Assembly: GCA_018664825.1 (NCBI GenBank)
Contig: JABJNO010000024.1
Span: 7,204 to 71,203 of the forward strand
Origin: Candidatus Parcubacteria bacterium
GTDB lineage: Bacteria; Patescibacteriota; Patescibacteriia; UBA1558; GWA2-36-10
DNA length: 64,000 nt
Reading direction: 5' to 3'
Shown here in pieces: positions 19,005-62,669 of this stretch. The translations under genes were made by a program, and so were the position numbers. The notes under the pieces are model-generated. The model searched no databases. It was given only the letters and a program-made list of their open reading frames with translations, and was not told the DNA's origin. The stretch's first letter is position 1. Every line of letters starts with the position of its first letter.

Positions 19005-19606
19005 TTAATGGTTCCGTGGACCTAATAGCCAGTATGGCGTCAGCGCGCCAACACCGTTACCTTCTTCATAAACAGTGTCCTCTCGCCCTCCATCATTTGC
19101 CATCTTATACGCGCCAGCTTCAAGGTAGGTAGCTATAATATATGTTTGCCTATCTGCAGTAACATGATAAAGATAGCCCCGCCCCAAATCATCCCAGACA
19201 GTTTGTCCTTCCACTAGTGATGGATCTAGAGGGCATGATGTATGAAGTAAGCCCATACTAAATAGCCCACCAATTGGTAAACCATCACAGTTATCCTCTG
19301 GCGGGTTTACCCCAGTGCCATTTAAAAATCCTTCTACGTCAGCAGTTGGATTAGGACCACAACTTAAATTTGAATCCTTTGTCCCCCCATTAACATCCTC
19401 TGCATCACCACAAGGATATACGCCATAGTGTTCATAATATATTTTCAAAGCAAGTCGAAAATCATCTAACTCATGAAGACGTACAGCATCACGAGCCTTG
19501 GCTTTGACGGTATTTAAATTTATTATAGACACAGTAGAGAGTATTCCAATAATAGCAATTACAACTAACAATTCGACAAGCGTAAAACCTAATTTATTAT
19601 GTGCCA
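19005..19606 (-). CDS. type IV pilin-like protein (prepilin N-terminal cleavage/methylation domain), solitary copy
   Basis: MAHNKLGFTLVELLVVIAIIGIL; start trimmed from 19652 to the ATG at 19606. Confidence 0.75.
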
Positions 19607-19653
19607 TTATTTTATACATAAATTTATTATACCAGAAAAATAAAAAGTTCAAA

Positions 19654-32355: not shown

Positions 32356-32405
32356 ATTTTTATCTTAATTACACCTGTTATTATACCCTGAACCAAAAAA
32401 TTTGT

Positions 32406-32440
32406 AAAAACAAAAACCCCACTAAAAATAAATTAGTGGA
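32406..32440 (-). terminator. intrinsic terminator after the major-pilin genes
   Basis: Minus-strand CCACTAA-TTTATTT-TTAGTGG followed by GGTTTTTGTTTTT. Confidence 0.6.
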
Positions 32441-32459
32441 GTTTTAAATTTAGAAAATA

Positions 32460-32948
32460 TTATCTAATGACCTTGATTGCTGCAGTTTGATATTTATCAC
32501 AAGATCCTATGGTCACAACTCCGTTTGCATCTTTGAGAAAATAATAACCTGTGCTAGTACCTACGACTGAACTAGATTTTGGATCAAATGGAACAGAGCC
32601 TATATAGCCATTGGTTACTAACGGGTCTAGCCAAATTATAGCATTGGTAGTAGTGGCCCCACAAGCATAATCTGCGTCTGTACCAGCATAATTGGCAATC
32701 ATACAAGTTGTATTGGCTGTAATACAATCTGCAGATGTAGTCACAAATGTACCGCTATTGTCAGAGGCATAAGTAGACCAGGCATCAGCAATACTAGTAA
32801 TATCAGACCAACGTTGAGCATCATTTGCTTCTCCGAGACGTTTGGCTGGATTGATAGCTACAAAAGTAGCAGCTGCGAGTAACGCAATAATAGCTACTAC
32901 TATTATCAGCTCTACCAAAGTAAAGCCCTTGTTTTTTATCTTCTTCAT
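32460..32948 (-). CDS. type IV major pilin-like protein (tandem paralogue 3 of 3)
   Basis: KGFTLVELIIVVAIIALLAAATFVAINPAKRLGEANDAQRWSD prepilin N-terminus; conserved C-term GSCDKYQT. Confidence 0.8.
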   Translation of the reverse strand: MKKIKNKGFTLVELIIVVAIIALLAAATFVAINPAKRLGEANDAQRWSDITSIADAWSTYASDNSGTFVTTSADCITANTTCMIANYAGTDADYACGATTTNAIIWLDPLVTNGYIGSVPFDPKSSSVVGTSTGYYFLKDANGVVTIGSCDKYQTAAIKVIR

Positions 32949-32975
32949 ACTAATCTTTTTTTAAAATTTAATATA

Positions 32976-33470
32976 TTATCTAGTAATTTCGATAGTATTG
33001 GTTTGGTATTTAGCACAAGAGCCTACAACAACAGCTCCGTTGGCATCTTTATGAAAAAAATACCCAGTAGTAGTACCTGTACCCCCGCTTGATTGTGGAT
33101 CATAGGGAATATCACCAATATAACTACCCGCCACCAAAGGATCTAACCAAATTGTACCATTGGTAGTACTAGCACAAGCAGTATTAGCACTAGTAGTACT
33201 AGTTGCTCCATCAAGCGTAGAAATCATACAATTGATATTACCACTTATGCAGGGCGAACTAGTTGCATTTGAACCACCATTGTCAGCCACATAAGCAGCC
33301 CAAGCATCAGCAATAGCAGAAATATCAGACCAACGTTGAGCGTCATTTGCTTGTCCAATACGCTTGGCTGGATTAGTAGCTACAAAAGTAGCGGCTGCTA
33401 GTAATGCAATAATAGCTACTACTATAATCAGCTCCACCAAAGTAAAGCCCTTATTTTGTTTTTTCTTCAT
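32976..33470 (-). CDS. type IV major pilin-like protein (tandem paralogue 2 of 3)
   Basis: As above; variable central Cys-containing segment. Confidence 0.8.
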   Translation of the reverse strand: MKKKQNKGFTLVELIIVVAIIALLAAATFVATNPAKRIGQANDAQRWSDISAIADAWAAYVADNGGSNATSSPCISGNINCMISTLDGATSTTSANTACASTTNGTIWLDPLVAGSYIGDIPYDPQSSGGTGTTTGYFFHKDANGAVVVGSCAKYQTNTIEITR

Positions 33471-33495
33471 CCTAATTTATTTTAAATTAAATGTT

Positions 33496-33996
33496 TTATC
33501 GGACAACTTGAATATTAGCAGTTTGATATTTATCACAAGAGCCTACAGCGACAACCCCGTTGGCATCTTTATGAAAGTAATACCCGGTAGTAGTACCTGT
33601 ACCACCACTTGATTTTGGATCAAAAGGAATACTACCAATATAACCTCCGTCAACCAAAGGATCTAACCAGATTGTACCATTTGTAGTACTAGCACAAGCA
33701 GCATCTGCATTAGCAGTACTACTAGCGGTTCCAGTATAAGTACCTATCATGCAATTTATATTTCCAGTAATACAACCCACAGACGTAGTTGCATCTGTGC
33801 CACTGTTTTCAGCCAAATAAGTAACCCAAGCATCAGCAATAGCAGTAACATCAGACCAACGTTGAGCGTCATTTGCTTCTCCAAGACGCTTGGCTGGATT
33901 GATAGCTACAAAAGTAGCGGCTGCAAGTAACGCAATAATAGCTACTACTATTATCAGCTCTACCAAAGTAAAACCCTTATTTTGTATTTTGTTCAT
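33496..33996 (-). CDS. type IV major pilin-like protein (tandem paralogue 1 of 3)
   Basis: As above. Confidence 0.8.
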   Translation of the reverse strand: MNKIQNKGFTLVELIIVVAIIALLAAATFVAINPAKRLGEANDAQRWSDVTAIADAWVTYLAENSGTDATTSVGCITGNINCMIGTYTGTASSTANADAACASTTNGTIWLDPLVDGGYIGSIPFDPKSSGGTGTTTGYYFHKDANGVVAVGSCDKYQTANIQVVR

Positions 33997-34102
33997 AGTA
34001 ATTTTAGTTTAAATTAAAATATATTATATATAATAGCAATTTTTCGAAATTTTGCCAATCAAAGCTTTTTATATTATAGCACAAAATCTAAAAAAATAAT
34101 AT

Positions 34103-35896
34103 TTAGAGGCGTTTTAAATCCATATTAACCATAATATTATAAGTTTTATTATCTACATCATATTTTATTACTTCATATCCTTTTGTTAGCTCCCAATCTG
34201 ACAATGGGCCTATATTTTGAGCAGAAATAACCCCTGACAAGTACTCATCTACCTCCTGCTCATTTATTTTGAAAAAAGTAAACTCTGCATCTATAGTAAG
34301 AGGGTCGCCCAAGTTGTATTCATCTTCTGAGGGGGATATTTTTTTTATATCAGCCAAAACAGCTTTGGGTAAAATATAAAATCCCTCCTCTTGTGTAGAC
34401 TCTAGATCAAGGCTACCAAGGGTCCTGGTATCCAACAGGTCATAAATATCTTTTGTGATTTCCTGATATCCATATTCTACACCCCTACTTGTTATCACAT
34501 CACTCACCTTGTGCTCTTTTGCAGAAATAAAATTATCGACACCAGTCTCATTTGTCGTGGCTACAAAAATTTCTTTATCAAAAGAATAATTATCCAAAAC
34601 AACAACAATATCTTCCTGATCATCGATAACTGCATCTTTTTGACCAAGACCGGGTATAAAGCTCGAAATCTTATCTCGGAACATAAAACCAGCCCCTGCC
34701 AATAATAATATAGCTAAAATAATAATATACAAAGGTTTTATTTTGAGCTTCTTTTTTTCTTCTTCAACTATCTCCTCGCCATCTTCATTGACTGTTTTGA
34801 CTGGGACAATTGGCTCTTTAGAAACTTCTTCTTTTTTTTCTCTAGAAAATTTTTGATAAAAGTTGATGACTGATTTAGAGTACCCAAGTTTGGCCAATCC
34901 CAAAGCATTTACAAACTTGGTATTGGCTACTGGCTTTGGTAAAAAACTAGCATCAATAAAAGAATAGCCTACTATAGCCGGGATACTAAGATTGTCTCCA
35001 AAATATTTATCTATACCTTTCATCTGAGCCAAACCACCAATCAAGACTATTTGTTCTATTTTTTTATTGTAAGTAGTCTGAAAATAATTTATAAAATTTT
35101 TCAGCTCATCTGCCAGTGGCTGAAGCTGTCCTTGAATAATCAACATTATTTCCCCATCATTGGCACTAGCATCCAATCCTACACTTTGTTTTCTTTCATT
35201 GGCTACTGAACGAGGAATATCCATCTTTTGAGCCAAGGCATCATCAATGTCGTTCCCGGCAATATTTATATTTATAGAATCACGAATACCAGAATGATCA
35301 AAAACAGAAGCAATGGTTGTCCTTGATCCTATATCCAATAAAAGAGTCACTTTTTTCTCAAGAGAATCTGATAATCCCGCAAAAGAGCTAATCGCTTCAC
35401 TGGTAATGCCCTCTATCTCAAAATTCATAGAATCAAATACATCCACAAAACTGGCAATCACATCTTTTTCAGCAGCTGTAAAAAATATTTCTTTATTCTC
35501 TCCTTTGTCTCCTAGTATTCTCATGTCAGTAACTAGATTATCAAAAGCCTCTGGAATCATTTCTTCTGCTCGCCTTTTGGCAACCTCTTTGATATCTTTG
35601 TCTTTTACGCTTTTTGGTATCGTCAAAATCTTGGAAAATACTTTTGACTCAGGAATTGACAAAAATACCTTATAGTCCTCTGCTTTACTAATAGGCTTTG
35701 GTTGGGCACTAGAAAAAAGTTGCTTCAAAGCAACCTTGAATTTTTCTTTATCCAAAATTCTACCATCCTCTACAATATCTGGCACCAAATTTACACGAGA
35801 ATAGGCCTCTACTTTGTATCCTTTTCTTTCTTTATCCAAAACAACAGCTTCGATAGAAAAATCTGCAATATCTATTCCTATTATGTTTTTTGCCAT
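34103..35896 (-). CDS. pilM: type IV pilus assembly protein PilM fused to a TM helix and PilN/PilO-like extracytoplasmic domain
   Basis: IIGIDIADFSIEAVVL actin-like ATPase fold (~380 aa), then TM LYIIILAILLLAGAGFMF and ~200-aa C-terminal domain. Confidence 0.7.
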   Translation of the reverse strand: MAKNIIGIDIADFSIEAVVLDKERKGYKVEAYSRVNLVPDIVEDGRILDKEKFKVALKQLFSSAQPKPISKAEDYKVFLSIPESKVFSKILTIPKSVKDKDIKEVAKRRAEEMIPEAFDNLVTDMRILGDKGENKEIFFTAAEKDVIASFVDVFDSMNFEIEGITSEAISSFAGLSDSLEKKVTLLLDIGSRTTIASVFDHSGIRDSININIAGNDIDDALAQKMDIPRSVANERKQSVGLDASANDGEIMLIIQGQLQPLADELKNFINYFQTTYNKKIEQIVLIGGLAQMKGIDKYFGDNLSIPAIVGYSFIDASFLPKPVANTKFVNALGLAKLGYSKSVINFYQKFSREKKEEVSKEPIVPVKTVNEDGEEIVEEEKKKLKIKPLYIIILAILLLAGAGFMFRDKISSFIPGLGQKDAVIDDQEDIVVVLDNYSFDKEIFVATTNETGVDNFISAKEHKVSDVITSRGVEYGYQEITKDIYDLLDTRTLGSLDLESTQEEGFYILPKAVLADIKKISPSEDEYNLGDPLTIDAEFTFFKINEQEVDEYLSGVISAQNIGPLSDWELTKGYEVIKYDVDNKTYNIMVNMDLKRL

Positions 35897-42332: not shown

Positions 42333-43562
42333 TTATCTTCCAACACCACTGGTCAATCCATAAATAGGATTGATGATAGCCATTGCCACAAAACCTACGA
42401 TCAATCCAATGAATATCAATAAAGCTGGCTCCAAGGCAGTTGATAAATTTTTGGTGGAGTGATCAACTTCTGATTCATAAAAATCTGACAGATAACTCAA
42501 TGACTCACCAAGTTTTCCAGAATTTTCACCTACCTGAGTCATACTACGGACAATACTTGGAAAATAATATTCTTTGGATAGACAGTCTGACAAGGCTGTG
42601 CCTTTTAGAACTTTGTGATATATGATGTCAATCTCTCTCCTATAAACATCACTAGTAACGGTTTCGGATACAATATGAAGAGACTTATCAATAGTAATTC
42701 CACTATCAAGTAAAGATCCTAAAGTACGGCAAAAAAGAGCAAGATTCATATTGCGTACAATTTTTCCAGTTATGGGTAGCTTCAAAAATACTGTGTGCAG
42801 CACAAGTCTACTTTGCCTTATTGCCAACAGGGCTCTAAACAAAATTACCAAGCCAATAATACCCAATAATACCCAGCGCCAATTGTCTCCCATAAAACTA
42901 GCAACAACTATAAATACCTTTGTAGTCATCGGCAATTCTACGCTTAGGGTTGTGAAAAAATTTACAATCTTTGGCAAGACAACAGCCGAGATGACTATCA
43001 TCAAACCAACAACAGCAACAATAACCAAGGTAGGATAGACTGAGGCAGATTTTATTTTTGATTTCAACTCATAACTTTTTCTTTGCTGGATTGATAACAA
43101 CTGAAGATTTTTTGCCAAGTTACCCCCTTTTTCTCCGACGGCAACCATATTTACAAACAAACGATCAAAATCTTTTTTGTGTTTTGCCAAAGAATCAGAT
43201 AAGGTATGCCCTTTACGAACATCTACCAAAATTTGATTTAGCTTCTTTGACATCAAGGGTGAACCACTGTCTGCCAAAACCTTGAGAGCCTTATCAATAG
43301 ATAACCCTGCCTGGATCATCACCGATAGATGTTTGGCAAACATTACTTTTTCCAAAAGTTTTAACTTGCCAAAAACAAGTCCTCCTTTTTTCTTCTTTCC
43401 TTTTGATTTATATTTATCTTCACTACCAGCCACTGGTTCCAAAGATACGATAATGCCCTCTTTGGAGGCGAGCTTGTTTCTAGCACCATTAATAGAAGAG
43501 GCCTCTATGGTTCCTTTTAATGTTTTTCCACTGGTGTTTGAAATTTTATAAGAATACAACAT
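42333..43562 (-). CDS. pilC: type IV pilus platform protein PilC (GspF family)
   Basis: Two GspF repeats with three TM segments. Confidence 0.85.
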   Translation of the reverse strand: MLYSYKISNTSGKTLKGTIEASSINGARNKLASKEGIIVSLEPVAGSEDKYKSKGKKKKGGLVFGKLKLLEKVMFAKHLSVMIQAGLSIDKALKVLADSGSPLMSKKLNQILVDVRKGHTLSDSLAKHKKDFDRLFVNMVAVGEKGGNLAKNLQLLSIQQRKSYELKSKIKSASVYPTLVIVAVVGLMIVISAVVLPKIVNFFTTLSVELPMTTKVFIVVASFMGDNWRWVLLGIIGLVILFRALLAIRQSRLVLHTVFLKLPITGKIVRNMNLALFCRTLGSLLDSGITIDKSLHIVSETVTSDVYRREIDIIYHKVLKGTALSDCLSKEYYFPSIVRSMTQVGENSGKLGESLSYLSDFYESEVDHSTKNLSTALEPALLIFIGLIVGFVAMAIINPIYGLTSGVGR

Positions 43563-43568
43563 ATATAA

Positions 43569-45257
43569 TTATTGTTTAGTTACTCTAAATATTTCTTCTA
43601 GGGTAGTCTTACCTGATATGGCTTTTTTAAAACCATCCTCAAACATAGTAGTCATACCTTGTTCCATGGCTTTTTTACGGATAGTATCCGCATCGGCCCG
43701 ACTTAATATAAGATTTTTTATTTCTTCATCTATCTGTAACACTTCAAAGATACCTATACGTCCAGCATAACCACTGTTGTTGCAGTTTTCACATCCTTTA
43801 CCTTTATAAAAACGGATATCTTTTATTTCTTGAGTGTCCAAAAATTTGCTAATATCTATCTCACTTTTTAGATCTTCGACTTCTTTTTCATCAAGAGTAT
43901 AACTGACAATACATTTCATACAAATTCTCCTGATCAAACGCTGAGCAACCACAACATTGACCGTGGAGGCTACCAAAAATGGCTCAACATTCATATCAAA
44001 TAAACGTGGTAAAGCAGTAGAAGCATCATTGGTATGCAGGGTGGTCAAAACAAGATGTCCGGTCATCGCAGAGTTGATAGAAATAGCCGCTGTTTCCTCA
44101 TCTCGAATCTCACCTACCATGATGATGTCCGGATCTTGACGAAGAAGAGAGCGTAATCCAGAGGCAAAGGTAAGGTTGGTATTTGCATTTACTTGAATCT
44201 GATTGACGCCAGTCAAATCATACTCTACTGGATCTTCGATAGTACATATATTTACATTTCTGCTATTCAAAATTTTGATGACTGCATAAAGAGTAGTCGT
44301 CTTACCAGAACCCGTAGGACCGGTCACCAATATCATGCCATATGGTCTTTTGGCAGCTTTGCTAATTATCCCAAAATCACGACCATTCATACCTAGACCC
44401 TCAAGGTCAAACTGTTTACCTTTTGATGACAAAAGACGCATTACTATCTTTTCACCTTGTGTAATAGGAATTGATGAAACTCTAATGTCCAACTTCTCGC
44501 CTTCTACGGTAGTTACAATTTTACCATCCTGAGCAGAGCGAATTTCGTCGGTACGTAGCTGGGCCAAAATTTTTATCCTAGCAACTATAATATTCAAAAT
44601 ATTTTTTGGTAGTTTCAAAACATCATACAAAATACCATCTATCCTAAAGCGAACTATGATTTCTTTATCGGCTGGCTCAATATGAATATCAGAAGCATGA
44701 TTGGTGTATGCATAGCTAAACAAATCATCCACTAGGCTGACCACCGAAATATCCTCAGCAGCTGACCCCTGAGCTTTGATAGCGTGTTTTTGGATACTGC
44801 TTGCATACTCCTGTTGGATTGTCTTACGATAAAGACTAAAGCTATTGTCAATACTAAACTGCGTAGCATAATAAGGGTTTACTTTATCTCCAACTTTTTT
44901 TTCAACCATCTTGATCATGGCATAGTCAAAAGGATTGGTCATGGCTATTTTTACCCCTTCTTCATCTCTACCAAAAACAATCATTTTCTGTTTTCTAGCA
45001 ACTACTTCCGGAATCAAGCCTAAGATTTCTGATTTTATTTTTTGTTTTGCCAAATTTACAAAACGAATATGTAATTGGTTGGCTATCAGCTGACCAATTT
45101 CTTCTGCCTTTATCAGATTTTGCTTTATCAAAAAAGTAGCAAAATCTTTTTTTCTTTCTTTTGCGGTCTTCAAGGCAGTATCCAAAATACTAGTTTCGAT
45201 CAAACCTATCTTGGAAATAATTTGATAAATTTTTTCATCAGAAATTATTTTGTTCAT
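43569..45257 (-). CDS. pilB: type IV pilus assembly ATPase PilB (GspE family)
   Basis: N-terminal GspII_E_N domain, Walker A GPTGSGKTT, Asp box, tetra-Cys CMKC..CENC. Confidence 0.95.
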   Translation of the reverse strand: MNKIISDEKIYQIISKIGLIETSILDTALKTAKERKKDFATFLIKQNLIKAEEIGQLIANQLHIRFVNLAKQKIKSEILGLIPEVVARKQKMIVFGRDEEGVKIAMTNPFDYAMIKMVEKKVGDKVNPYYATQFSIDNSFSLYRKTIQQEYASSIQKHAIKAQGSAAEDISVVSLVDDLFSYAYTNHASDIHIEPADKEIIVRFRIDGILYDVLKLPKNILNIIVARIKILAQLRTDEIRSAQDGKIVTTVEGEKLDIRVSSIPITQGEKIVMRLLSSKGKQFDLEGLGMNGRDFGIISKAAKRPYGMILVTGPTGSGKTTTLYAVIKILNSRNVNICTIEDPVEYDLTGVNQIQVNANTNLTFASGLRSLLRQDPDIIMVGEIRDEETAAISINSAMTGHLVLTTLHTNDASTALPRLFDMNVEPFLVASTVNVVVAQRLIRRICMKCIVSYTLDEKEVEDLKSEIDISKFLDTQEIKDIRFYKGKGCENCNNSGYAGRIGIFEVLQIDEEIKNLILSRADADTIRKKAMEQGMTTMFEDGFKKAISGKTTLEEIFRVTKQ

Positions 45258-45262
45258 AGTAT

Positions 45263-45709
45263 TTATTGTGGTTTATTTTGTTTTTCTTCGGCACCCCCAT
45301 TGCCATTTGTTTTTGCCTCTTTACTTTGGCTCTTGGAATGTAAATATTGATTTACTTTGTCCATAATAGCGGTCAGAGTAATATCGTCCTTGATCAGATA
45401 ATCCACTGCTCCCAAATCCAATCCTTTTTTGACATCATCTTCTTGTCCTAGGTTGGATAAAATGATTACAGGAATATTTTTGGTTTTTTCGTCTTCCTGT
45501 AATTCCATCAAAACTTCAAAACCATTTTTCTTGGGCATAATCATATCCAAGATAATTAAATCTGGATCATTGGTCCTGGCTTTTTCCAGGCCTTCCTCGC
45601 CATCAACAGCCAAAATAACATCATAACCTCTATCTCCCAATTCTGACTGATAAACTTTCCTTAAAAAATTATCATCATCTACAAATAAAATTTTTACATT
45701 GTCTGCCAT
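45263..45709 (-). CDS. cheY: CheY-like single-domain response regulator (PilG/PilH-like)
   Basis: ILFVDDD...LIILDMIMPKKNGFEVL...IPVIILS..K receiver-domain residues. Confidence 0.85.
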   Translation of the reverse strand: MADNVKILFVDDDNFLRKVYQSELGDRGYDVILAVDGEEGLEKARTNDPDLIILDMIMPKKNGFEVLMELQEDEKTKNIPVIILSNLGQEDDVKKGLDLGAVDYLIKDDITLTAIMDKVNQYLHSKSQSKEAKTNGNGGAEEKQNKPQ

Positions 45710-45713
45710 AGCT

Positions 45714-47270
45714 TTAAATTATGTTGTTTATATCAATTACTAACACCGGCCCACCATCTTCCGATACAGCCACTCCTTTTATATAATCCTTATCTTTCAA
45801 AATTGTTGGCATTTTTTTATTTACCAATTCTTGCTCTGTGATTTTCCCAAACAAAGGCAAAGCCACCCTGCCTTCTTTTGTTTTTAATAACAAAACATAC
45901 TTATACAAAGCGTCAAATCTTGGCATTGCCAAAGTTTCAAAAAGATAAATCAATTTATATTTTTTTCTATTGTCTACAAAAAACTTACTTTTCTTGAAAT
46001 CTTTTACTTCTTCTAGCTTTACAATTTTTTCTACAATAGACAGGGGCACTGCTAAAGCATGCTCCTTGAAGCTAAACACTATGCTCCTAAAAATAGATAA
46101 GGGTAATGGAAGGGTAATGGTAAAAGAAGTCCCTTTTTTGGAAACACTATCTACTTCAACACTTCCTTTTAGCTCTGCTACCTTGTCTTTGACGAGACTC
46201 AATCCCACACCACGACCAGAACTAATACTAACACTCTTTCCACTAGAAATACCTGGACTAAAAATCAAACCCTTAACTTCTTTTACTGTAAGTTTTTTGG
46301 CTTTTGCCTTGCTTATGATTCTATGTTTCACGGCTTGATCCATTATCTTTTGCCAATCTATACCTTGGCCATTGTCCTGAACTATTACTTTCATCATCTC
46401 GCCATCAAGTCTAGCTTCTAGATTTATGCGGCCATTTTTTTGATCCTTGCTTATTCCATGGGCAACTGCATTTTTCAAAAGCTGAATCAATATTTCAATC
46501 AACTCATCAAGAATAGATTTATCAAGAGCCAAGTCATTGTCTTCTATAATCAATTCTGCTTCTTTACCTTCGTTTTTGGCTATTTCTCTAACCAAAAATG
46601 GTAACGAAGAAAATATCTGAGCCAGAGGAACAATCCTCAATTTTTCAAATTCACGACGAAGATTATTGACCACCTCATCCATACGCATACAATTGGAAAG
46701 CATTTTGCTATTGCCATGTTTTTTGATGACACTCTTATTTTCCATAGTACTAATCATCAGATCATCCAATAAATATTGGATTACATTGAGCTTGTGGATA
46801 GACACTGATATCTCAGCTACCGTTGGTAGGCTACCCAAAATATGTTTTTCTCTTTTGACTATTACTTTTTTACCGTCTTTATTTTTGGTATTTTTTTTCT
46901 TAACAATATTTTTAAAAATTGTTGTTTGTTGTTGTAAATTTATTTCTTTACTTGTTTTTTGAATAGTTTGAATATTTTGTTTAAATTTTTCCAAAGAACC
47001 AATCAAAATATCCATGACTTCTTCGTCTATTATCAAACTTTGGTTGTAAGCAGAATCAATAATATTTTCCATAGCATGAAAAGCATGCACTGTTTTTTTG
47101 TAACCCATAGTAGCAGCTGCGCCTTTCATAGAATGTATCAATCTAAAAATATTTTCTATCAAATTTTGGCTTTTGGTATTTTTTTCCAAAGCAAGCAACA
47201 AGTCGGCCATTTTTTTTAGCTGACTTTTGTAAGTAGATAAATATAGATCTTTGTATTTGTTGTTAATCAT
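45714..47270 (-). CDS. cheA: CheA-type histidine kinase (Hpt - dimerisation - HATPase_c - CheW-like)
   Basis: HSMKGAAATMG Hpt His box; N/G1/G2 boxes NAVAHGI, DNGQGID, SGRGVGLSLV; C-terminal CheW-like domain. Confidence 0.85.
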   Translation of the reverse strand: MINNKYKDLYLSTYKSQLKKMADLLLALEKNTKSQNLIENIFRLIHSMKGAAATMGYKKTVHAFHAMENIIDSAYNQSLIIDEEVMDILIGSLEKFKQNIQTIQKTSKEINLQQQTTIFKNIVKKKNTKNKDGKKVIVKREKHILGSLPTVAEISVSIHKLNVIQYLLDDLMISTMENKSVIKKHGNSKMLSNCMRMDEVVNNLRREFEKLRIVPLAQIFSSLPFLVREIAKNEGKEAELIIEDNDLALDKSILDELIEILIQLLKNAVAHGISKDQKNGRINLEARLDGEMMKVIVQDNGQGIDWQKIMDQAVKHRIISKAKAKKLTVKEVKGLIFSPGISSGKSVSISSGRGVGLSLVKDKVAELKGSVEVDSVSKKGTSFTITLPLPLSIFRSIVFSFKEHALAVPLSIVEKIVKLEEVKDFKKSKFFVDNRKKYKLIYLFETLAMPRFDALYKYVLLLKTKEGRVALPLFGKITEQELVNKKMPTILKDKDYIKGVAVSEDGGPVLVIDINNII

Positions 47271-47679
47271 AAATCTTTAAGTCTTCCATGATTTTATCTG
47301 TCTCTAAAATATAAACTTTTTGTTTGTTTATTTTTATATACTTTTTAAATTGTTTTTTGTTGCGGTCAGTAAAAACCTGATTGACCTTTATGGTTTCTCC
47401 ACCCTGATCAACAATCAAACCATAAAAATCTTTGCTAAAACTAAAGAGTAGACAGTTGTGTTCATCTGGAAGATTATATTTTATATCCAAAAATTTAGCT
47501 GTGTTCAAAACAGTGATAATATTGCCTCCGTGATATATCAAACCAGTTATTCGATTGTCGACATCTGGTAAAATTGCAACTTTATCACAACTAATAAATT
47601 GACTATCACCCAAAAGAGGCATGGCAAATTTCTCATCATTTATGTAAAACAAAATAAATTTTTGCTGTTTTTTTACCAT
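47263..47679 (-). CDS. cheW: CheW-like coupling protein
   Basis: 138-aa CheW domain; 8-nt overlap with cheA. Confidence 0.7.
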   Translation of the reverse strand: MVKKQQKFILFYINDEKFAMPLLGDSQFISCDKVAILPDVDNRITGLIYHGGNIITVLNTAKFLDIKYNLPDEHNCLLFSFSKDFYGLIVDQGGETIKVNQVFTDRNKKQFKKYIKINKQKVYILETDKIMEDLKIYD

Positions 47680-48821
47680 TATTGTTTACCTACCAAATTA
47701 TTTAAAGTGCTAGTCGCCCTGTTGAGCGAGGTTGATGACTTGTTCAATGACTTATTCACCACTAATTGCTTGAATATAATCTGAGCTATATCATCTGTTT
47801 GCTTGACTAGGGATTTTGATTCTTTATTTAGGTTGCCGATCATAGTTTTGATGTTATCAGATTCTTGGTGAGTTTTTTCAGTTGACTTGTTTATATCGTT
47901 GATACTTTGAGAAATAATACCAATACCGCCTGCTATTTTGCTCAAAAACTTTATTGTCTGACTAACAACTTTGATGCTCTTATTGGTCTCTTCCCATTCT
48001 GATTGAGATGATTCTTTGACTTGTTCTATCTGTCTCTGCATATCCCCAACCAACGATTGGATGCTAGCAGCTGCTTGCTCACTAGTAGCATTTAGTTCTC
48101 TTATTTGTGAAACAATGCCTGCGAAACTATCTCCTGAAGATGATTGATTGGCCCGAATAGATGCATTGAGACTCAAAAATTTGGCCGTGTCTGCCAATAC
48201 AGCCACTCTTTCGGCAATATTTTTTACTTTTTTGGTATAAGCATCCAGAGCTTGTGATAATTTTTGATTTTCTGTAACAAGATTTTTGACTGACACCAGA
48301 CTATCGAGAGCTAGCTTTGATTTACTTTCACTCTGACTAGCCAATTTATCAATATCACTAGCATGCTTGGCTGAACTTTGAGTCTTGCCAACAATCTGAT
48401 TCAGTGATTTGACCATACCTGCCACTGCAACGCTTCCTGATTTGAGCCCTAGTTGCTGTTGTTTACTACTAGAAATCAAAAATTCGGAAATTTCACTATT
48501 GTTTTCACTAATGTCTGATAAGTTCTCAATAGATTTTGATAAATTTTCTACAACTTTTGATAAATCAAGAACTGCTTCTTGGATAGGTTCTGTTATAAGA
48601 CGTGATAATCTACGCGTAGCGATCAAAGATAGGATAAAAACAAAGGCCAGGGACGCAAAAACGGCTATCAATACTGCCCTCACTACTTCCTGATCTTCCA
48701 ATAAATTGACTTGCGGCGAAAATATATAGATCAAAATAAACAATATAGCTAAAGGTAGTAAAGATACCAAAATAAACCAAGAAATAAACTTGAGATAGAT
48801 TTTTGTTTCTACGACTTTCAC
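47679..48821 (-). CDS. methyl-accepting chemotaxis protein-like transducer (two TM helices with minimal loop plus MCP signalling domain)
   Basis: Highly conserved hairpin-tip region ...QTSLLALNASIEAARAG-like (LSLNASIRANQSS); heptad coiled-coil; no periplasmic sensor domain. Confidence 0.8.
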   Translation of the reverse strand: MKVVETKIYLKFISWFILVSLLPLAILFILIYIFSPQVNLLEDQEVVRAVLIAVFASLAFVFILSLIATRRLSRLITEPIQEAVLDLSKVVENLSKSIENLSDISENNSEISEFLISSSKQQQLGLKSGSVAVAGMVKSLNQIVGKTQSSAKHASDIDKLASQSESKSKLALDSLVSVKNLVTENQKLSQALDAYTKKVKNIAERVAVLADTAKFLSLNASIRANQSSSGDSFAGIVSQIRELNATSEQAAASIQSLVGDMQRQIEQVKESSQSEWEETNKSIKVVSQTIKFLSKIAGGIGIISQSINDINKSTEKTHQESDNIKTMIGNLNKESKSLVKQTDDIAQIIFKQLVVNKSLNKSSTSLNRATSTLNNLVGKQ

Positions 48822-49090: not shown

Positions 49091-50458
49091 TTGATGAAAA
49101 AAGTAATTTTACTCATCGGAGACATCGTCTTGCTTTATGCAAGTTTGGCCATAACGGTTTGGTTGCGTTATGGTTATTTGGATGGCCAAATTTTTGTTCG
49201 TCACCTTATCCCCTTTTCAATTGTTTTTATTATTTGGTTGATGATATTTTTTATCAATGGTCTTTATGAAATGAAAAAGGTTCGTAATGATTTTAAATTT
49301 TACGGACAGCTTGTCCAAAACCTAGCTATCAACGCTCTCCTTGGATTTGCCCTCTTCTACTCTATCCTCGGACAATTCACTACTCTGCGTCCTCAAAAGG
49401 TTTTAATTGTCTTGTTGATAATCTTTGCTATTTTATTTTTGTTGTGGAGAAAGATATTTTACAAAATAGTTTCTAGTGCTACCTTGGGAACCAATCTAGC
49501 AATCATCGGAATCAACGAAGAGTCTCTTATCTTGGCGCAAGAAATAATGACCAAACCTCAACTAGGTTATAAACTAAAATTATTTATCAACCCAGACCAA
49601 GCTCGGCTACCGGACAAATTTTTGGTAGTACCAATGGCACGAGATATCTCAGAACTAAAAAATAATCTACTAAAACACAAAATAAGCACCGTTGTTGTAT
49701 TGAACAACCCAAAATACGGACCAGAGGTTGCCAAGCATCTTTTTGAAAGTATTGACCTCAAGGTCCAGTATTTTAACTTGGTAAGTTTTTATGAAAAAGT
49801 TTTGGGTAAGATGCCACTAAATTCACTAGAAAGAAGCTGGTTTTTGGAAAATTTTAATAATAAAAACTTTAAATGGAACAAAATTGTTAAAAAAACCATA
49901 GATTTGCTATTTGCTGGTCTATTTAGTCTTGTTTCCCTTGTTTTGTTACCTTTTATAGCCCTATCTATAAAACTAGAGTCAAAAGGACCTCTTATATATA
50001 GCCAAGAAAGAGTTGGTCTAAATGGAAAAATATTTACTGTTTACAAGTTTCGTTCTATGGTAAAAAATGCCGAAACCAATGGCGCTCAATGGGCAAAAGA
50101 AAATGACGCTCGTGTCACTAGAGTTGGTAAATTTATCCGTAAAACAAGAATCGATGAAATTCCCCAATTTTGGAATATCCTAAAAGGCGATATGAGTTTT
50201 GTTGGTCCTCGCCCAGAAAGACCAGAGTTTGTATCTGAACTAAAAGAAAAAATTACTTTTTATGACGAACGACACTTGGTCAAACCAGGGCTGAGTGGTT
50301 GGGCTCAAATCAACTTCCCCTATGGTGCGAGTGTGGAAGATGCCAAAGAAAAATTAAGCTACGATTTGTTTTATATAAAAAATCAATCAGTGGCTCTTGA
50401 TATATCTACAATTCTAAAAACTTTCAATACTGTCTTTAATAAAAGCCTAGGAAGATAA
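49091..50458 (+). CDS. polyprenyl-phosphate sugar phosphotransferase (WbaP/EpsL 'bacterial sugar transferase' family), priming enzyme
   Basis: N-terminal TMs; C-terminal KRxIDxxxAxxxL..GP..YSQERVG.NGK.F..YKFRSM..PGLSGWAQI. Confidence 0.85.
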   Translation: MMKKVILLIGDIVLLYASLAITVWLRYGYLDGQIFVRHLIPFSIVFIIWLMIFFINGLYEMKKVRNDFKFYGQLVQNLAINALLGFALFYSILGQFTTLRPQKVLIVLLIIFAILFLLWRKIFYKIVSSATLGTNLAIIGINEESLILAQEIMTKPQLGYKLKLFINPDQARLPDKFLVVPMARDISELKNNLLKHKISTVVVLNNPKYGPEVAKHLFESIDLKVQYFNLVSFYEKVLGKMPLNSLERSWFLENFNNKNFKWNKIVKKTIDLLFAGLFSLVSLVLLPFIALSIKLESKGPLIYSQERVGLNGKIFTVYKFRSMVKNAETNGAQWAKENDARVTRVGKFIRKTRIDEIPQFWNILKGDMSFVGPRPERPEFVSELKEKITFYDERHLVKPGLSGWAQINFPYGASVEDAKEKLSYDLFYIKNQSVALDISTILKTFNTVFNKSLGR

Positions 50459-50463
50459 AGTCT

Positions 50464-51432
50464 ATGGACAGATTGAAAAACAAAACAATTTTGGTTACCG
50501 GTAGCGCCGGTTTTATTGGTTTCAATGTATCCAAAAAATTATTAGCCGAAGGCATCAAGGTTGTTGGTATCGACAACTTCAATGATTATTATTCTGTTGA
50601 GCTAAAAGAAGCTCGCAATAAACTCCTAGAAAAATTTGATAACTACAAGTTGTATAGAGGCAACTTGGAAAATATAGATTTTATTGAAAAAGTATTTGAA
50701 CAAGAAAAAATAGATCGGATATGCCACCTAGCAGCTCAAGCTGGTGTCAGATACAGCCTAGAACATCCTGACGTCTACATACAAACAAATATTGTTGCTA
50801 CTCACAATTTACTGAAACTTGCCAAAGATCATAAGGTGAGCGACTTTGTATTTGCATCTAGCTCTTCTGTCTATGGTACAATTGATGTGTTCCCTTCTAA
50901 AGAAGATTTTAATCTACAAACTCCCCTGTCTCTATATGCGGCCACAAAACAATCCGGAGAGTTGATGGCCCATGCCTACAATCATCTTTATGGCCTAAGG
51001 ATAAGATGTCTGAGATTTTTCAATGTTTATGGCCCCTGGGGAAGACCTGATTCGGCCTTATATATCTTTACTGATTTGATAAGCAAAAATAAAACAATAG
51101 ATGTTTTTGGTGATAGCGCCAAAGATTATACTTATATAGATGATATAGTAGATGGCGTAGTCAATTCTATTGCCGTAGATTTAGATTATGAGATAATAAA
51201 CCTAGGCAACGATAGACCAATAGAGCTATCACGCTACATCGAACTAATAGAAAAAGAGTTGGGTAAAAAAGCAACTAAAAATAAACTGCCTCCAGCTGTT
51301 GGTGATGTACAAAAATCGTGCGCCGATATAAGCAAGGCCAAAAAACTTTTGGGCTATAATCCAAAAACACCCGTAGAGCAAGGAATCAAAAAATTTGTTG
51401 CCTGGTATAAAGAATATTATAAAATAAAATAA
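50464..51432 (+). CDS. NAD-dependent sugar-nucleotide epimerase (WbpP/TviC-like UDP-GlcNAcA/UDP-glucuronate 4-epimerase)
   Basis: GSAGFIGFNV Rossmann; YAATKQSGE catalytic YxxxK. Confidence 0.8.
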   Translation: MDRLKNKTILVTGSAGFIGFNVSKKLLAEGIKVVGIDNFNDYYSVELKEARNKLLEKFDNYKLYRGNLENIDFIEKVFEQEKIDRICHLAAQAGVRYSLEHPDVYIQTNIVATHNLLKLAKDHKVSDFVFASSSSVYGTIDVFPSKEDFNLQTPLSLYAATKQSGELMAHAYNHLYGLRIRCLRFFNVYGPWGRPDSALYIFTDLISKNKTIDVFGDSAKDYTYIDDIVDGVVNSIAVDLDYEIINLGNDRPIELSRYIELIEKELGKKATKNKLPPAVGDVQKSCADISKAKKLLGYNPKTPVEQGIKKFVAWYKEYYKIK

Positions 51433-52631
51433 TGAAATCTAAAAAAACAAAAATCTGTATTGTAGGATTGGGCTATGTAGGTCTCCCTCTGGCGGTTGCT
51501 TTTGGTAAACAAGAAAAAATAAACGGCTTTGATATAAATAAAAAAAGAATTGAAGAGCTCAAAAAAAATATTGATTCTAGCAAAGAAACAAGCTCTAAGG
51601 ACATCCAAAGAGCAAAAATAACTTTTTCTTTTGATCCAAAAATTATTAGTCAGTCAAATTTTATCATAATCGCCGTACCCACTCCTATAGACAAGTACAA
51701 AAACCCTGATTTACGTCCACTACTCAGTGCATCAAAGCTAGTCGGCCAAAATCTAAAAAAAGGTAGTGTAGTAGTCTATGAATCAACTGTTTATCCTGGT
51801 TGTACCGAAAATGACTGTGTCCCTGTACTAGAAAAATATTCTAAATTAAAGTTTGGTGAAGATTTTCAAATTGGTTATTCACCCGAGAGGATAAATCCAG
51901 GAGACAAAGTATATACCATAGATAAAATTGTAAAAGTAGTTTCTGGTAGTGACAAAAAAACTTTGGAGCTAGTCGCTAAAACATATTCAAAAATAATAAA
52001 AGCTGGTGTGCATAAAGCATCAAGTATACAAGTAGCCGAAGCTTCTAAAATCATCGAAAACACCCAAAGAGATGTAAATATTGCTTTGATGAATGAATTT
52101 AAAATGATTTTTGACAAAGCAAACGTCAATTGGGAAGACACCCTGAAGGCTGCTGGTACCAAATGGAACTTTCTAAAATTTACCCCCGGACTTGTCGGTG
52201 GTCATTGTATCAGCGTAGATCCCTACTATCTTACCCAAAAAGCAAAATCCCTACACCACAATCCCAAGATGATCTTGGCTGGTAGAGATATCAATGATAA
52301 TATGGCAAAATATGAAGCCAAGCGCATGATAAGGTATATCCGTAAAAACAAAATCAAAGCCAAAAAAATATTGATTTTAGGAGCTACTTTCAAACCAGAT
52401 GTTTCTGATACTAGAAATTCAAAAATCGAAGATTTTGCAAATGAAATCAAAAAAAAGAACTACCAAGTAGCTATCTTTGATCCTTTTATAAAATCTACTA
52501 GGATATTTGGCTGCCAAAACATAAAAAAATCCGAAATCAAAAAATATGATTTTGTAGTCAAGGCTGTAAATCATAAATTGTTTAAAGATTTGACACCTAA
52601 TTACGAAATATTAAAATATATAGATGTTTAG
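51432..52631 (+). CDS. nucleotide-sugar dehydrogenase (UDP-glucose/GDP-mannose dehydrogenase family; WbpO/TviB/WecC-like)
   Basis: KICIVGLGYVGLPLAVAF; catalytic Cys region GGHCIS. Confidence 0.85.
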   Translation: MKSKKTKICIVGLGYVGLPLAVAFGKQEKINGFDINKKRIEELKKNIDSSKETSSKDIQRAKITFSFDPKIISQSNFIIIAVPTPIDKYKNPDLRPLLSASKLVGQNLKKGSVVVYESTVYPGCTENDCVPVLEKYSKLKFGEDFQIGYSPERINPGDKVYTIDKIVKVVSGSDKKTLELVAKTYSKIIKAGVHKASSIQVAEASKIIENTQRDVNIALMNEFKMIFDKANVNWEDTLKAAGTKWNFLKFTPGLVGGHCISVDPYYLTQKAKSLHHNPKMILAGRDINDNMAKYEAKRMIRYIRKNKIKAKKILILGATFKPDVSDTRNSKIEDFANEIKKKNYQVAIFDPFIKSTRIFGCQNIKKSEIKKYDFVVKAVNHKLFKDLTPNYEILKYIDV

Positions 52632-53901
52632 AAGTTTGCAACAAAAAATATACAAGCTACTAAAACGTAGTGAAAAATATACAAAAACTGACATGGTCTA
52701 TCTAGCCAAGGGTGGTTTTTGGCTTACTTTATATCAAGGATTTTCTATACTGACGGGTTTCTTGTTGGCTATTGCCTTTGCAAATCTTTTGCCAAAAGAA
52801 ACTTATGGTACTTACAAATATATATTGTCTATTGCTAGCCTCCTATCTATACCTACACTATCTGGTATAAATACTGCCATCACTCAAGCGGTGGCCCGGG
52901 GTTTTGAACAGTCTTTTTATCCAGCTCTAAAGACAAAAATAAAATGGGGACTCCTTGGTGGAGTAGCTAGTTTATTTTTGGCTTTATACTACTACACCAA
53001 TGACAATAATACTTTGACGATTAGCTTTTTGATTGTTGCCCTATTTACACCTTTCATGGATCCTTTGTCATTGTACACATCTTATCTCAGTGGCAAAAAA
53101 GAATTCCGTATTCTCAGCAAGTACAATATCATCACCAGAGTATTTGATGCTATTGTGTTGGGTGTAGTAATTTATTTTACAAGCAACCTCTTTCTTTTGG
53201 TGGCCGCCTATTTTATTGCAAACACCACAATTCGTTTTATATTCTTTAAACTAACTACCAAAAACTTCCCTATTCATCACAAATATGACCCTAGTACACT
53301 GAGCTACGGAAAACACCTTAGCCTAATGAATATAATCACTACAATAGCTGGGCAATTGGATAAAGTTTTGGTTTTTCATTATTTGGGCGCTGTAGATCTG
53401 GCTATATTTTCTTTTGCCATCATCATGCCCGAACATATCAAGGGTATATTCAAAAATATAAACGCCCTGGCTTTTCCAAAATTTTCAGAAAATCACACTA
53501 CTGCTGAAATCAAAAAAACCATTTTCAAAAAAATGGGCAAACTACTTATCTTGGCTACTGCTATAACAATAGTATATGTAGTGGCGTCTCCTTATATTTT
53601 TAGATGGCTATTTCCAGAATATATAGAATCAATTTTTTATTCTCAAATATTTGCGATATCTATAATATTGTTACCTATCACAGGTCTAATGCTTACAGCC
53701 TTGCAGGCCCAAAAAGCTCAAAAGGAGCTATATCAATTCAATATATACTCCTCTATCACTCAAATAGTAATTCTATTTTTCTTTATTTATTTTTATGGTT
53801 TGATGGGTATGATAGTAGCTCGTATTGTCATCCGATTTATCAGTGGTGCTATATCTATAGCCCTACTAAATAAAGCAGCCGCTAAATCTACAAGTGCTTA
53901 A
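52624..53901 (+). CDS. oligosaccharide flippase (Wzx / MOP superfamily), 12 TM
   Basis: 425 aa, evenly spaced hydrophobic helices. Confidence 0.7.
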   Translation: MFRSLQQKIYKLLKRSEKYTKTDMVYLAKGGFWLTLYQGFSILTGFLLAIAFANLLPKETYGTYKYILSIASLLSIPTLSGINTAITQAVARGFEQSFYPALKTKIKWGLLGGVASLFLALYYYTNDNNTLTISFLIVALFTPFMDPLSLYTSYLSGKKEFRILSKYNIITRVFDAIVLGVVIYFTSNLFLLVAAYFIANTTIRFIFFKLTTKNFPIHHKYDPSTLSYGKHLSLMNIITTIAGQLDKVLVFHYLGAVDLAIFSFAIIMPEHIKGIFKNINALAFPKFSENHTTAEIKKTIFKKMGKLLILATAITIVYVVASPYIFRWLFPEYIESIFYSQIFAISIILLPITGLMLTALQAQKAQKELYQFNIYSSITQIVILFFFIYFYGLMGMIVARIVIRFISGAISIALLNKAAAKSTSA

Positions 53902-54973
53902 ATATCCTTTCGGCAACCTTGTCGTCCCACAATGGAATATGTCCTGATTCAAAATCATCTCTTTGGAGATGTTTTATTACATCTTTATTTTCCAAATAAT
54001 CATCAATAGAAAACAATTTGTTGGAACCCTTCTCCAAAGTAATGGGTCTTTCAGTATTATCTCTCAAGGTAGCACAAGATATACCAAGGTGCGTAGTCTC
54101 TTCTTGGATACCCCCAGAGTCTGTAATCACTCCCTGACTTTCTGACATTAGCTTCATAAAATCAAAATACCCCAACGGCTCTACAATATTTAAATTATCC
54201 AATAAAAAACCTAATTTTAAATCTTCTATTTTATGTTTGGTGCCTGGATGAATTGGTAAAACAACCGGAATGTCACCATTTACTTCATTTAGCAACATCA
54301 ATATCTTTTTGAACAACATAGGATTGTCTGTATTTTCTTGACGATGAATTGTAGCTACAACATATTTTTTTGATTGTAAATTCAAAGTTTTTAAAATATC
54401 AGATTTATTGAATTGATCTCTAAATATCTCAATACTATTTATCATTATATTTCCAACATAATGTATTTTGTTTTTTGGAACACCCTCTCTTTCTAAATTC
54501 TCATTGGCTGATGGCTCGGTAGTAAAGAGGGATTCTGAAAGATGATCAACTATAGCTCTGTTTATTTCTTCGGGCATACGACGGTCATGACTTCGTAGGC
54601 CGGCTTCTATATGAATCAATTTTTGACCGCTCTTCATAGAAGCTACCGCTCCTGCTAGAGTTGAGTTTACATCTCCAAACACAATTACTCCTTCATAATC
54701 TCCCTTGGACAAAATTTCTGTCAAAGCTGTGAACATTTTACCGATTTTTTCAGTATGAAATTTGCCCTGAATATCAAGATTGAAATCTGGTTTTGGTATA
54801 GCCATCTCTTCAAAAAATATTTTTGACATATTTTGATCGAAATGTTGACCAGTATGTATAATCGTAAATTCAAATTCTGGATGTTTTTTGGCTTCCTTAA
54901 AAAATGGAGCCGCTTTTACAAAGTTTGGTCTAGCTCCCATAATAACTACAAATTTTCTTTTCTTGTTTTCCAT
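53888..54973 (-). CDS. wecB: UDP-N-acetylglucosamine 2-epimerase (non-hydrolysing)
   Basis: GARPNFVKAAP, HTGQH, HIEAGLRS; start taken at MENKKRKF to avoid overlap with the upstream gene. Confidence 0.9.
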   Translation of the reverse strand: MENKKRKFVVIMGARPNFVKAAPFFKEAKKHPEFEFTIIHTGQHFDQNMSKIFFEEMAIPKPDFNLDIQGKFHTEKIGKMFTALTEILSKGDYEGVIVFGDVNSTLAGAVASMKSGQKLIHIEAGLRSHDRRMPEEINRAIVDHLSESLFTTEPSANENLEREGVPKNKIHYVGNIMINSIEIFRDQFNKSDILKTLNLQSKKYVVATIHRQENTDNPMLFKKILMLLNEVNGDIPVVLPIHPGTKHKIEDLKLGFLLDNLNIVEPLGYFDFMKLMSESQGVITDSGGIQEETTHLGISCATLRDNTERPITLEKGSNKLFSIDDYLENKDVIKHLQRDDFESGHIPLWDDKVAERIFKHL

Positions 54974-54977
54974 AATT

Positions 54978-56744: not shown

Positions 56745-56758
56745 AATATTATTTTATA

Positions 56759-57571: not shown

Positions 57572-57574
57572 ATA

Positions 57575-58678: not shown

Positions 58679-58682
58679 AGTT

Positions 58683-61183: not shown

Positions 61184-61186
61184 CTC

Positions 61187-62659: not shown

Positions 62660-62669
62660 AAAAATACTC

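Follow-up and report, generated by a model that had tools for sequence, protein, structure and literature searches.

Organization of the pilin array

The window analysed here is a 64,000-nt stretch of DNA from an uncultured, ultrasmall member of the Patescibacteria, a Candidatus Parcubacteria bacterium (GCA_018664825.1, contig JABJNO010000024.1, positions 7,204 to 71,203; ~36% GC). It carries a minus-strand type IV pilus operon in the order MCP-CheW-CheA-CheY-PilB-PilC-large minor pilins-PilM-A1-A2-A3, of which the final element, an array of three pilin genes denoted A1, A2 and A3, is the subject of this report (Table 1). The initial annotation had placed three tandem pilins of ~165 aa at 32460–33996; the open reading frames (ORFs) of 166, 164 and 162 aa fill exactly this interval, all on the minus strand. 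The genes are arranged head-to-tail and are full-length, each running from an ATG through a leader and an entire α1 helix to a stop codon.

All three proteins open with a class III signal peptide, M(N/K)K..NKG↓FTLVE, of the general form M-x-K-x-x-N-K-G↓FTLVE. They match the Pfam family N_methyl (PF07963) above cutoff, with E = 4e-9 to 6e-8, and score 32 bits against TIGR02532, for which the cutoff is 16.3. The type IV pilin fold is present, with an α1 helix of ~50 residues whose first half is hydrophobic and an αβ head with an antiparallel β-sheet; the leader of eight residues including the Gly, the F at +1 and the mature length of 154–158 aa are those of type IVa pilins. The combined content of Gly, Ala, Ser and Thr (GAST), which is a criterion for sheared extracellular pilins in Saccharibacteria (PMC11623550), is 40–44% in the pilins and 25% in PilB.

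Amino acid identity among the paralogues is 88–93% over residues 1–57, 47–63% over residues 58–108 and 62–78% from residue 109 to the end. The near-identity ascribed earlier to the first ~60 residues is borne out by these figures; the last ~50 residues are conserved, but fall short of the near-identity claimed for them. At the nucleotide level the pairs A1/A2, A1/A3 and A2/A3 are 83%, 78% and 74% identical overall. Alignment of the tandem units spans ~520 nt, including ~30 nt 5′ of each start codon, at 74–83% identity, so that chance resemblance is no concern. The spacers between the genes have about the predicted length of ~25 nt (25 and 27 nt). They resemble one another and the 35 nt 5′ of A1, with a common ATTTAATTTAAAA..AAATTAG motif, but are not, as first described, near-identical.

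Each pilin has four cysteines (C75, C82, C101 and C154 in A1), and variability is greatest in the loop between the second and the third. Among 117 family members C154 never varies and C101 is conserved in at least 90%; these two may form a C-terminal (D-region) disulfide. The C75/C82 pair is restricted to the subclade of the window pilins. A3 is the outlier of the three, with 67–77% aa identity, another loop length and a deep lineage of its own. The variable loops are Ser/Thr-rich, with 12–17 S+T within residues 64–108.

Orthologues and selection

A related lineage with ~84% nt identity, GCA_003358065.1 (L029), has the same three pilin genes in the same order and was used as the orthologue reference. 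In the middle and C-terminal parts each window paralogue is nearest its L029 orthologue, in the tree as well as in the distance matrices. The orthologues are 88–91% identical in protein and 83–88% in nucleotide sequence, a nucleotide divergence similar to that of the flanks (74% identity at the pilM 3′ end, 88% in hlyD). The ratio of nonsynonymous to synonymous divergence (dN/dS) between orthologues is 0.09–0.11 overall (0.09 for A2) and 0.12–0.30 in the middle. Over paralogue and orthologue comparisons together the middle gives 0.12–0.41, with no sign of diversifying selection. The segment called hypervariable in the initial annotation is variable among the paralogues, but with such ratios, and with the orthologues closest to one another, it does not deserve the stronger word.

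Features specific to one paralogue are kept in its orthologue: the 5-aa deletion and ‘CGATTT’ of A3, and the ‘SSP-CISGNINCMISTL’ of A2. The A3-type loop and deletion are found also in P0018, from a more distant lineage. The retention of such features across lineages, together with the low orthologue dN/dS, argues that each of the three copies is old, functional and maintained in its own right.

In one paralogue of L029 (482–1021, MKKIEKKGFTQAPSFSRKSGA followed by GFTLVEL) and in one of a further relative, L010 (672–1217, MKNLIKKSDFTQRHYGA followed by GFTLIEL), the leader is longer and includes a second, degenerate motif that resembles a cleavage site. These extensions may have arisen by partial duplication of the leader region.

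Homogenization of the 5′ segment

Divergence is unevenly distributed along the genes. In the 5′ segment, defined as the first 57 codons (171 nt; leader and α1), the synonymous divergence (dS) among the paralogues is 0.17–0.38, compared with 0.6–0.9 in the middle and 0.5–2.2 in the 3′ third. The proportion of synonymous differences (pS) is likewise 0.15–0.30 in codons 1–57 against 0.37–0.71 in the 3′ third, and dN/dS is 0.3–0.4 in the middle and 0.08–0.27 in the 3′ third. A GENECONV-style permutation test of the longest concordant run of polymorphic sites found no significant mosaic tract in any pair (p = 0.16–0.99). Since this test is blind to homogenization common to all three copies, regional dS, orthologue and paralogue distances and quartet site patterns were used instead.

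In codons 1–57, paralogues within a genome are as close as, or closer than, orthologues of the window and L029. The pS between A1 and A2 of the window is 0.15, while that between A1 of the window and A1 of L029 is 0.45 (Fisher p = 0.007). Quartet site patterns in the 5′ segment divide into 11 that group by genome and 12 that group by orthology; in the rest of the genes the numbers are 16 and 103 (Fisher p = 0.0005). For the middle and 3′ regions the nucleotide p-distance is 0.12–0.23 to the orthologue and 0.19–0.34 to the paralogue. Read from these patterns, gene conversion, or an equivalent homogenizing process, is detectable and appears confined to the α1-coding 5′ end; with homogenization at this end only, and with shared substitutions that are specific to a genome, it would act on the conserved end of the genes and not shuffle their variable part. 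The DNA alignment proposed in the initial annotation as a check for mosaics has thus a divided outcome, in that pairwise tracts are absent but divergence is not uniform, the first 171 nt being homogenized.

The same signature recurs in the arrays of more distant lineages, where third-position identity in the 5′ segment and in the rest of the genes is 83% and 43% (L052) and 60–74% and 43–48% (L011).

Transcription and translation signals

A candidate sigma-70-type promoter sits in the 106-nt intergenic region between pilM and A1 (33997–34102). Between A1, A2 and A3 the signal scan of the array found no terminator-like site and no convincing promoter; a weak promoter-like match (9/12) at 33506–33479, overlapping spacer 1, is no better than the shuffle background. 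The strong terminator reported after the last copy is indeed there. Most likely, one transcript would run from the promoter region 5′ of A1 to this single terminator after A3.

The intergenic regions flanking the array are 88.6% (33997–34102) and 92.3% (32356–32459) identical to their counterparts in L029, against 74% for the adjoining 3′ end of the pilM coding sequence, a degree of conservation that suggests regulatory elements. The region 33997–34102 is AT-rich and contains no run of three or more G, and hence no G-quadruplex (G4) motif. Beyond the array, a strong promoter-like site for the HlyD operon lies at 32408–32380 (TTTACA, 17 nt, TATAAT; 11/12).

A Shine-Dalgarno-like 4-mer precedes only 4 of the 34 long ORFs in the window, and starts are preceded by A/T-rich sequence, which suggests that translation initiation is largely Shine-Dalgarno-independent throughout the window. 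The missing Shine-Dalgarno sequence before the pilins was considered as an argument against their expression and rejected, being uninformative where so few genes have one.

Copy number in related lineages

The slot after PilM holds three pilins in the window, L029, L011 and L052, at least two in L010, and one in L030, L031/L032 and L033/L034. It is followed by HlyD/ABC genes in all of these relatives except L031/L032, which has HrcA-GrpE there. The pilin of the single-copy relatives belongs to the same family and is about as large as the window pilins; that it is the sole small pilin in the slot argues that this is the slot of the major pilin. In the window, A1–A3 are the smallest pilins and occupy a dedicated slot with its own intergenic region and terminator, a context in keeping with major pilins.

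In a tree of the head domains the orthologues of the window and L029 pair with each other. A1 and A2 group with the single-copy pilins of L032 and L030, and A3 stands on its own deeper branch near L033. The three copies of L011 cluster together, which indicates that its array arose by independent triplication. The list of homologues, among which the nearest named relatives are Komeilibacteria and other Patescibacteria, contains ~15 groups of matches with a common longest-contig size, and two homologue pairs have consecutive NCBI locus tags (COV55_00805/00810 and C3F02_00175/00180); tandem pilins therefore seem to be common in the clade. A scan of genome contigs with the pilin alignment returned mostly unrelated pilins (Pelagibacter and others) that matched in the N-terminal motif only, the useful hits being L010 and L011. 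The literature was also searched for tandem pilin paralogues of the candidate phyla radiation, and no account of such an arrangement turned up.

Population contigs and hybrid junctions

Proteins identical to A1, A2 and A3 are encoded on at least 24, 23 and 18 contigs, respectively, drawn from numerous JGI and ENA metagenomes. Contigs of 2 kb or more that extend into the array are without exception 99.6–100% identical to the window over the part covered, and those that cover more than one pilin gene all have the canonical gene order. As to the variation between related strains and metagenomes that the initial annotation proposed to look for, copy number does differ, from one to three among related lineages, but sequence within the population, on contigs of this size, hardly does. 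Many contigs end or have N gaps within the array, which points to a repeat that troubles assemblers. By fragmenting and mis-joining short-read assemblies, this repeat has probably led to under-reporting of pilin copy number in metagenome-assembled genomes of the clade.

The longest exact matches between the genes are 47 nt (A1/A3), 29 nt (A1/A2) and 21 nt (A2/A3), the 47-nt tract being the longest exact repeat in the array. Three short contigs switch between A1 and A3 inside this tract. L035 (952 nt, ~2x coverage) runs from the end of pilM through the A1 promoter region and A1 leader into the A3 body, the terminator and hlyD. L036 (887 nt) and L037 (839 nt), from different samples and assemblers, run from the A2 3′ end through spacer 2 and the A3 leader into the A1 body, spacer 1 and A2. 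They may be the reciprocal products of unequal crossing-over or loop-out, or equally the two wrong routes that an assembler can take through a collapsed de Bruijn node. In both arrangements the switch is confined to the conserved 5′ tract, so that neither produces a new surface variant.

The hybrid proteins P0009 and P0121 were not accepted as direct evidence of recombination, because the contigs are only 839–952 nt long, one has ~2x coverage, the switch falls in the longest exact repeat and the same data contain artefacts. Among the latter, L046 (1–365) fuses an ORF of collagen-like G-x-y repeats into the 3′ part of A1, and runs of N lie inside the pilin genes of L044, L045 and L052. Size variants beside A3, of 165 aa in L045 and 158 aa in L044, were rejected as artefacts of scaffold Ns. 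A search of the metagenome contig collection with a degenerate junction pattern and with the plain 47-nt tract gave no match, the organism being evidently absent from that collection.

Taken at face value, the hybrid contigs would make the 47-nt tract an active recombination site in natural populations, with crossovers giving one-gene forms (A1 leader and A3 body) and expanded or circular forms (A3 leader and A1 body). The subunit composition of the pilus, and hence the surface or host specificity of an episymbiont, would then vary between cells by reversible changes in copy number, and the three-subunit state would be the first tri-heteropolymeric bacterial type IV pilus. We regard this extension as very doubtful.

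A proposed mixed-subunit pilus and its alternatives

We hold with moderate confidence that A1–A3 are functional, co-oriented major-pilin paralogues of one transcription unit that contribute to a mixed-subunit pilus, their 5′ end being kept uniform by gene conversion. Because the prepilin-peptidase site is the same in all three and α1 nearly so, a single PilB/PilC/PilM set can handle them all, and would process and polymerize any of the three. The subunits differ in the αβ-loop and in the C-terminal head surface, and purifying selection keeps each type between lineages. A pilus that mixes the three subunits, and so presents a mosaic or multifunctional surface as with PilE1/PilE2 of Streptococcus sanguinis, is the outcome that we infer as most likely. 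Gene conversion within the array, a form of concerted evolution, would keep the common 5′ segment uniform and thereby the subunits interchangeable for the machinery. Unequal crossing-over between the same repeats has probably added and removed copies, and this would account for the one to three copies in the slot among relatives. In established pilus structures α1 lies buried in the core of the filament, with the αβ-loop and the D-region surface-exposed; the division into homogenized and diverged segments would match this division into core and surface exactly. Mixed fibres, the second of the two interpretations offered in the initial annotation, are therefore plausible and seem to us the most economical and the best mechanistic reading, whereas the first, variation by gene conversion, fares badly (see below), even though conversion does seem to act on the conserved end.

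Several observations weigh against this account. Promoter-like matches in the pilM–A1 region are no commoner than expected from shuffled sequence, so the promoter is a candidate only. The low synonymous divergence of the 5′ segment rests on ~40 synonymous sites per comparison and could partly reflect constraint at the nucleotide level, on translation initiation or on codon choice in the hydrophobic helix. Homogenization is also weaker in L029, where A1 and A2 are 83% identical in the N-terminal part and 78% in the rest. Finally, neither PilD (Peptidase_A24) nor PilT was found among the ORFs scanned in the 64-kb window.

Alternatively, each paralogue could form a homopolymeric pilus of its own with a distinct role, such as adhesion, motility or DNA uptake, as PilA4/PilA5 of Thermus thermophilus and PilA1/PilA2 of the Saccharibacteria member TM7x do; which of them is assembled would be decided by regulation or by the paralogues competing for the machinery. 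This is possible but rather unlikely. The paralogue-specific surfaces kept across lineages do point to distinct, maintained functions, and TM7x provides a precedent, with two distinct pili made from two major pilins (PMC11623550). But the TM7x genes lie in separate loci with a second ATPase, whereas only one PilB/PilC set is seen in the present operon and the genes are 25–27 nt apart with no internal terminator or convincing internal promoter, so that independent regulation is not apparent. The near-identical α1 helices, too, favour co-polymerization; near-identical pilins of S. sanguinis interact equally well with themselves and with each other (PMC10628169). A division of labour in which one of the three is the true major pilin and the other two are accessory, low-abundance or modulatory pilins would accommodate the outlier A3, with its deep lineage common to P0018 and its resemblance to L033, and the fact that single-copy relatives manage with one pilin. 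A modulatory pilin of this kind is exemplified by the antagonist-type PilAII of Pseudomonas stutzeri. We judge such a division distinctly improbable here, given that all three agree in size, leader, α1 helix, GAST content and Cys pattern and are under equally strong purifying selection, and that separate large minor pilins are already encoded in the operon.

Antigenic or phase variation would create new surface variants by copying variable middle segments between paralogues, as in Neisseria pilE/pilS. Tandem homologous copies speak for it, since recombination could be guided by the conserved flanks they have in common, and the gene conversion found at the 5′ end, the three short contigs with A1/A3 hybrid junctions and the frequent breaks of assemblies inside the array could also be cited in its favour. 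Yet all copies are complete, with no silent or truncated cassettes among them, and the middle segments are conserved in a paralogue-specific way; the middle and C-terminal segments group by orthology across ~16% nt divergence. No significant mosaic tracts lie in the variable part, the dN/dS of the middle gives no sign of diversification, contigs of 2 kb or more from numerous samples are 99.6–100% identical over the part of the array that they cover, the switch in the hybrid contigs is limited to the conserved 5′ tract, and the region upstream of A1 has no G4 motif. On these comparisons the claim of pilin variation by gene conversion finds no support: the probability left to it is very small, and variation of the Neisseria type appears effectively excluded. 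It is equally hard to believe that the copies are recent, redundant duplicates that drift apart or decay without biological significance. The varying copy number of the slot among relatives and the independent origin of the array in L011 would fit such a history, but the triplication predates the split of the window and L029, all copies are intact in both lineages with an orthologue dN/dS of ~0.1, and the dS of 1.6–2.2 between A3 and A1/A2 in the 3′ third, near saturation, indicates that the copies are old and retained.

With a mixed-subunit pilus as the preferred reading, the locus falls into the known category of multi-paralogue major pilin loci, here in an understudied phylum. It offers a clean natural case of partial concerted evolution, in which the core helix would remain interchangeable while the exposed heads diverged and were then preserved. 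For contact with a host, type IV pili are the organelle with the strongest support in Patescibacteria. Should marine lineages of the Parcubacteria type routinely use two or three conserved subunit types, the pilus surface could determine host range or evasion of phages and predators in these uncultured bacteria. In Saccharibacteria, type IV pili mediate host binding, competition and twitching (PMC11623550).

The pilus operon and its neighbourhood

The features of the array and of the operon are collected in Table 1. The chemosensory module at the head of the operon is reminiscent of Pil-Chp control, here in a bacterium with a reduced genome. The large prepilin-type proteins, three in number, have adhesin- or lectin-like modules and are candidate tip adhesins. 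The Cys-rich protein encoded next has no match in Pfam or NCBIfam, and the gene between the LamG pilin and PilM differs in size among the relatives (136–332 aa). PilM has a C-terminal extension of ~280 aa with a predicted membrane segment at about residues 378–398, and may be a PilM-PilN/O-like fusion; the extended form, of 555–600 aa, precedes the pilin slot in all relatives examined. A HlyD/ABC/MacB transporter operon lies downstream of the array.

Table 1. Features of the pilin array and the type IV pilus operon in the 64-kb window
Feature	Position	Strand	Remarks
A1 pilin paralogue, 166 aa, MBT4850311.1	33496–33996	minus	ORF and pilin profile matches
A2 pilin paralogue, 164 aa, MBT4850310.1	32976–33470	minus	ORF and pilin profile matches; L029 orthologue 91% aa identity
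A3 pilin paralogue, 162 aa, MBT4850309.1	32460–32948	minus	Most divergent copy; 5-aa deletion in variable loop
Spacer 1, 25 nt	33471–33495	minus	AT-rich, without terminator-like site
Spacer 2, 27 nt	32949–32975	minus	AT-rich
A1 codons 1–57, leader and α1 helix	33826–33996	minus	Homogenized among paralogues
A2 codons 1–57	33300–33470	minus	Counterpart of homogenized segment
A3 codons 1–57	32778–32948	minus	Counterpart of homogenized segment
47-nt tract identical in A1 and A3, A1 copy	33926–33972	minus	Switch point of all three hybrid contigs
47-nt tract identical in A1 and A3, A3 copy	32878–32924	minus	
Candidate sigma-70-type promoter	34030–34058	minus	TTGGCA, 17 nt, TG-n-TATTAT, extended −10; 10/12 match plus TG extension
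Intrinsic terminator after A3	32413–32445	minus	13-bp stem, 7-nt loop, T-run; RNAfold minimum free energy −16.0 kcal/mol
MCP, CheW, CheA (Hpt/HATPase/CheW domains), CheY	45263–48821	minus	Complete chemosensory module directly upstream of pilB
PilB	43569–45257	minus	T2SSE 3e-128
PilC	42333–43562	minus	T2SSF 1.7e-61
Large prepilin-type protein, 362 aa	41233–42321	minus	Fib_succ_major
Large prepilin-type protein, 1033 aa	38130–41231	minus	DUF2341 and Clostridium neurotoxin receptor-binding-like domain (Toxin_R_bind_N)
Large prepilin-type protein, 444 aa	36796–38130	minus	Laminin_G_3
Cys-rich protein, 289 aa	35920–36789	minus	24 Cys, repeated CGDG...C motifs after hydrophobic N-terminus
PilM-like assembly protein	34103–35896	minus	PilM_2 1.3e-27, residues 7–318; directly 5′ of array

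Two further observations concern the surroundings of the operon. An orphan prepilin-type ORF of 215 aa with KLGFTLVELLVVIAIIGIL, at 19005–19652 on the minus strand and ~13 kb from the pilus operon, is an extra pilin outside the cluster. The pilus and chemosensory operon is adjoined by a large surface-glycan biosynthesis cluster (49091–62707) with a sugar transferase, epimerases/dehydratases, a UDP-glucose dehydrogenase, a flippase, glycosyltransferases, a methyltransferase and a B12-radical SAM enzyme. With their Ser/Thr-rich variable loops, glycosylation of the pilins is conceivable.

Comparison with known systems

The closest analogue is the PilE1/PilE2 pair of S. sanguinis (PMC10628169, PMC6497953), likewise encoded by adjacent full-length, similar major-pilin genes in a pil locus. 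There, two tandem, highly similar major pilins, distinguished mainly by an indel in the αβ-loop, co-polymerize stochastically (PMC10628169). The gene pattern found here agrees with that description, with 88–93% identity in residues 1–57 against 47–63% in residues 58–108 and a 5-aa loop indel: near-identical α1 helices, with a short indel and substitutions in the αβ-loop region as the main difference. The two systems also have in common a single assembly machinery, a monoderm-type envelope and separate large modular minor pilins with adhesin domains. The present array differs in having three copies in place of two, in its Patescibacteria lineage and in its four-Cys pilins, and here we infer co-assembly from the genes.

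Like the array, PilA1/PilA2 of Nanosynbacter lyticus TM7x belong to a type IV pilus system of Patescibacteria in which at least two major pilins, small and rich in GAST, go with large minor pilins that bear accessory domains, and type IV pili are implicated in episymbiosis in the group of TM7x, the Saccharibacteria (PMC11623550). In TM7x, however, separate loci and machineries make two filaments, whereas the window has three tandem paralogues and one machinery, and its organism belongs to a Parcubacteria/Komeilibacteria-like lineage.

Neisseria pilE/pilS resembles the array in having several pilin-homologous sequences with conserved and variable segments and recombination between copies. Unlike that system, the window has no silent, promoterless, 5′-truncated cassettes and no G4 element; conversion in its array would homogenize the conserved 5′ end, and the variable part does not vary in the population. 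Nor is there inversion-type switching as in Moraxella tfpQ/tfpI-Piv, all copies being direct repeats on one strand, with no recombinase among the neighbouring genes scanned. Thermus thermophilus, with PilA4 and PilA5, is another organism with more than one major pilin; these two reportedly build distinct wide and narrow pili (PDB 6xxd, 6xxe).

As in partial concerted evolution generally, the paralogues are closer to one another than the orthologues are in a single segment, substitutions are shared in a genome-specific manner, and the longest tract of identity coincides with putative crossover junctions. Seen against such cases the array is mechanistically ordinary, its one specific point being that the converted segment coincides with the helix of the filament core.

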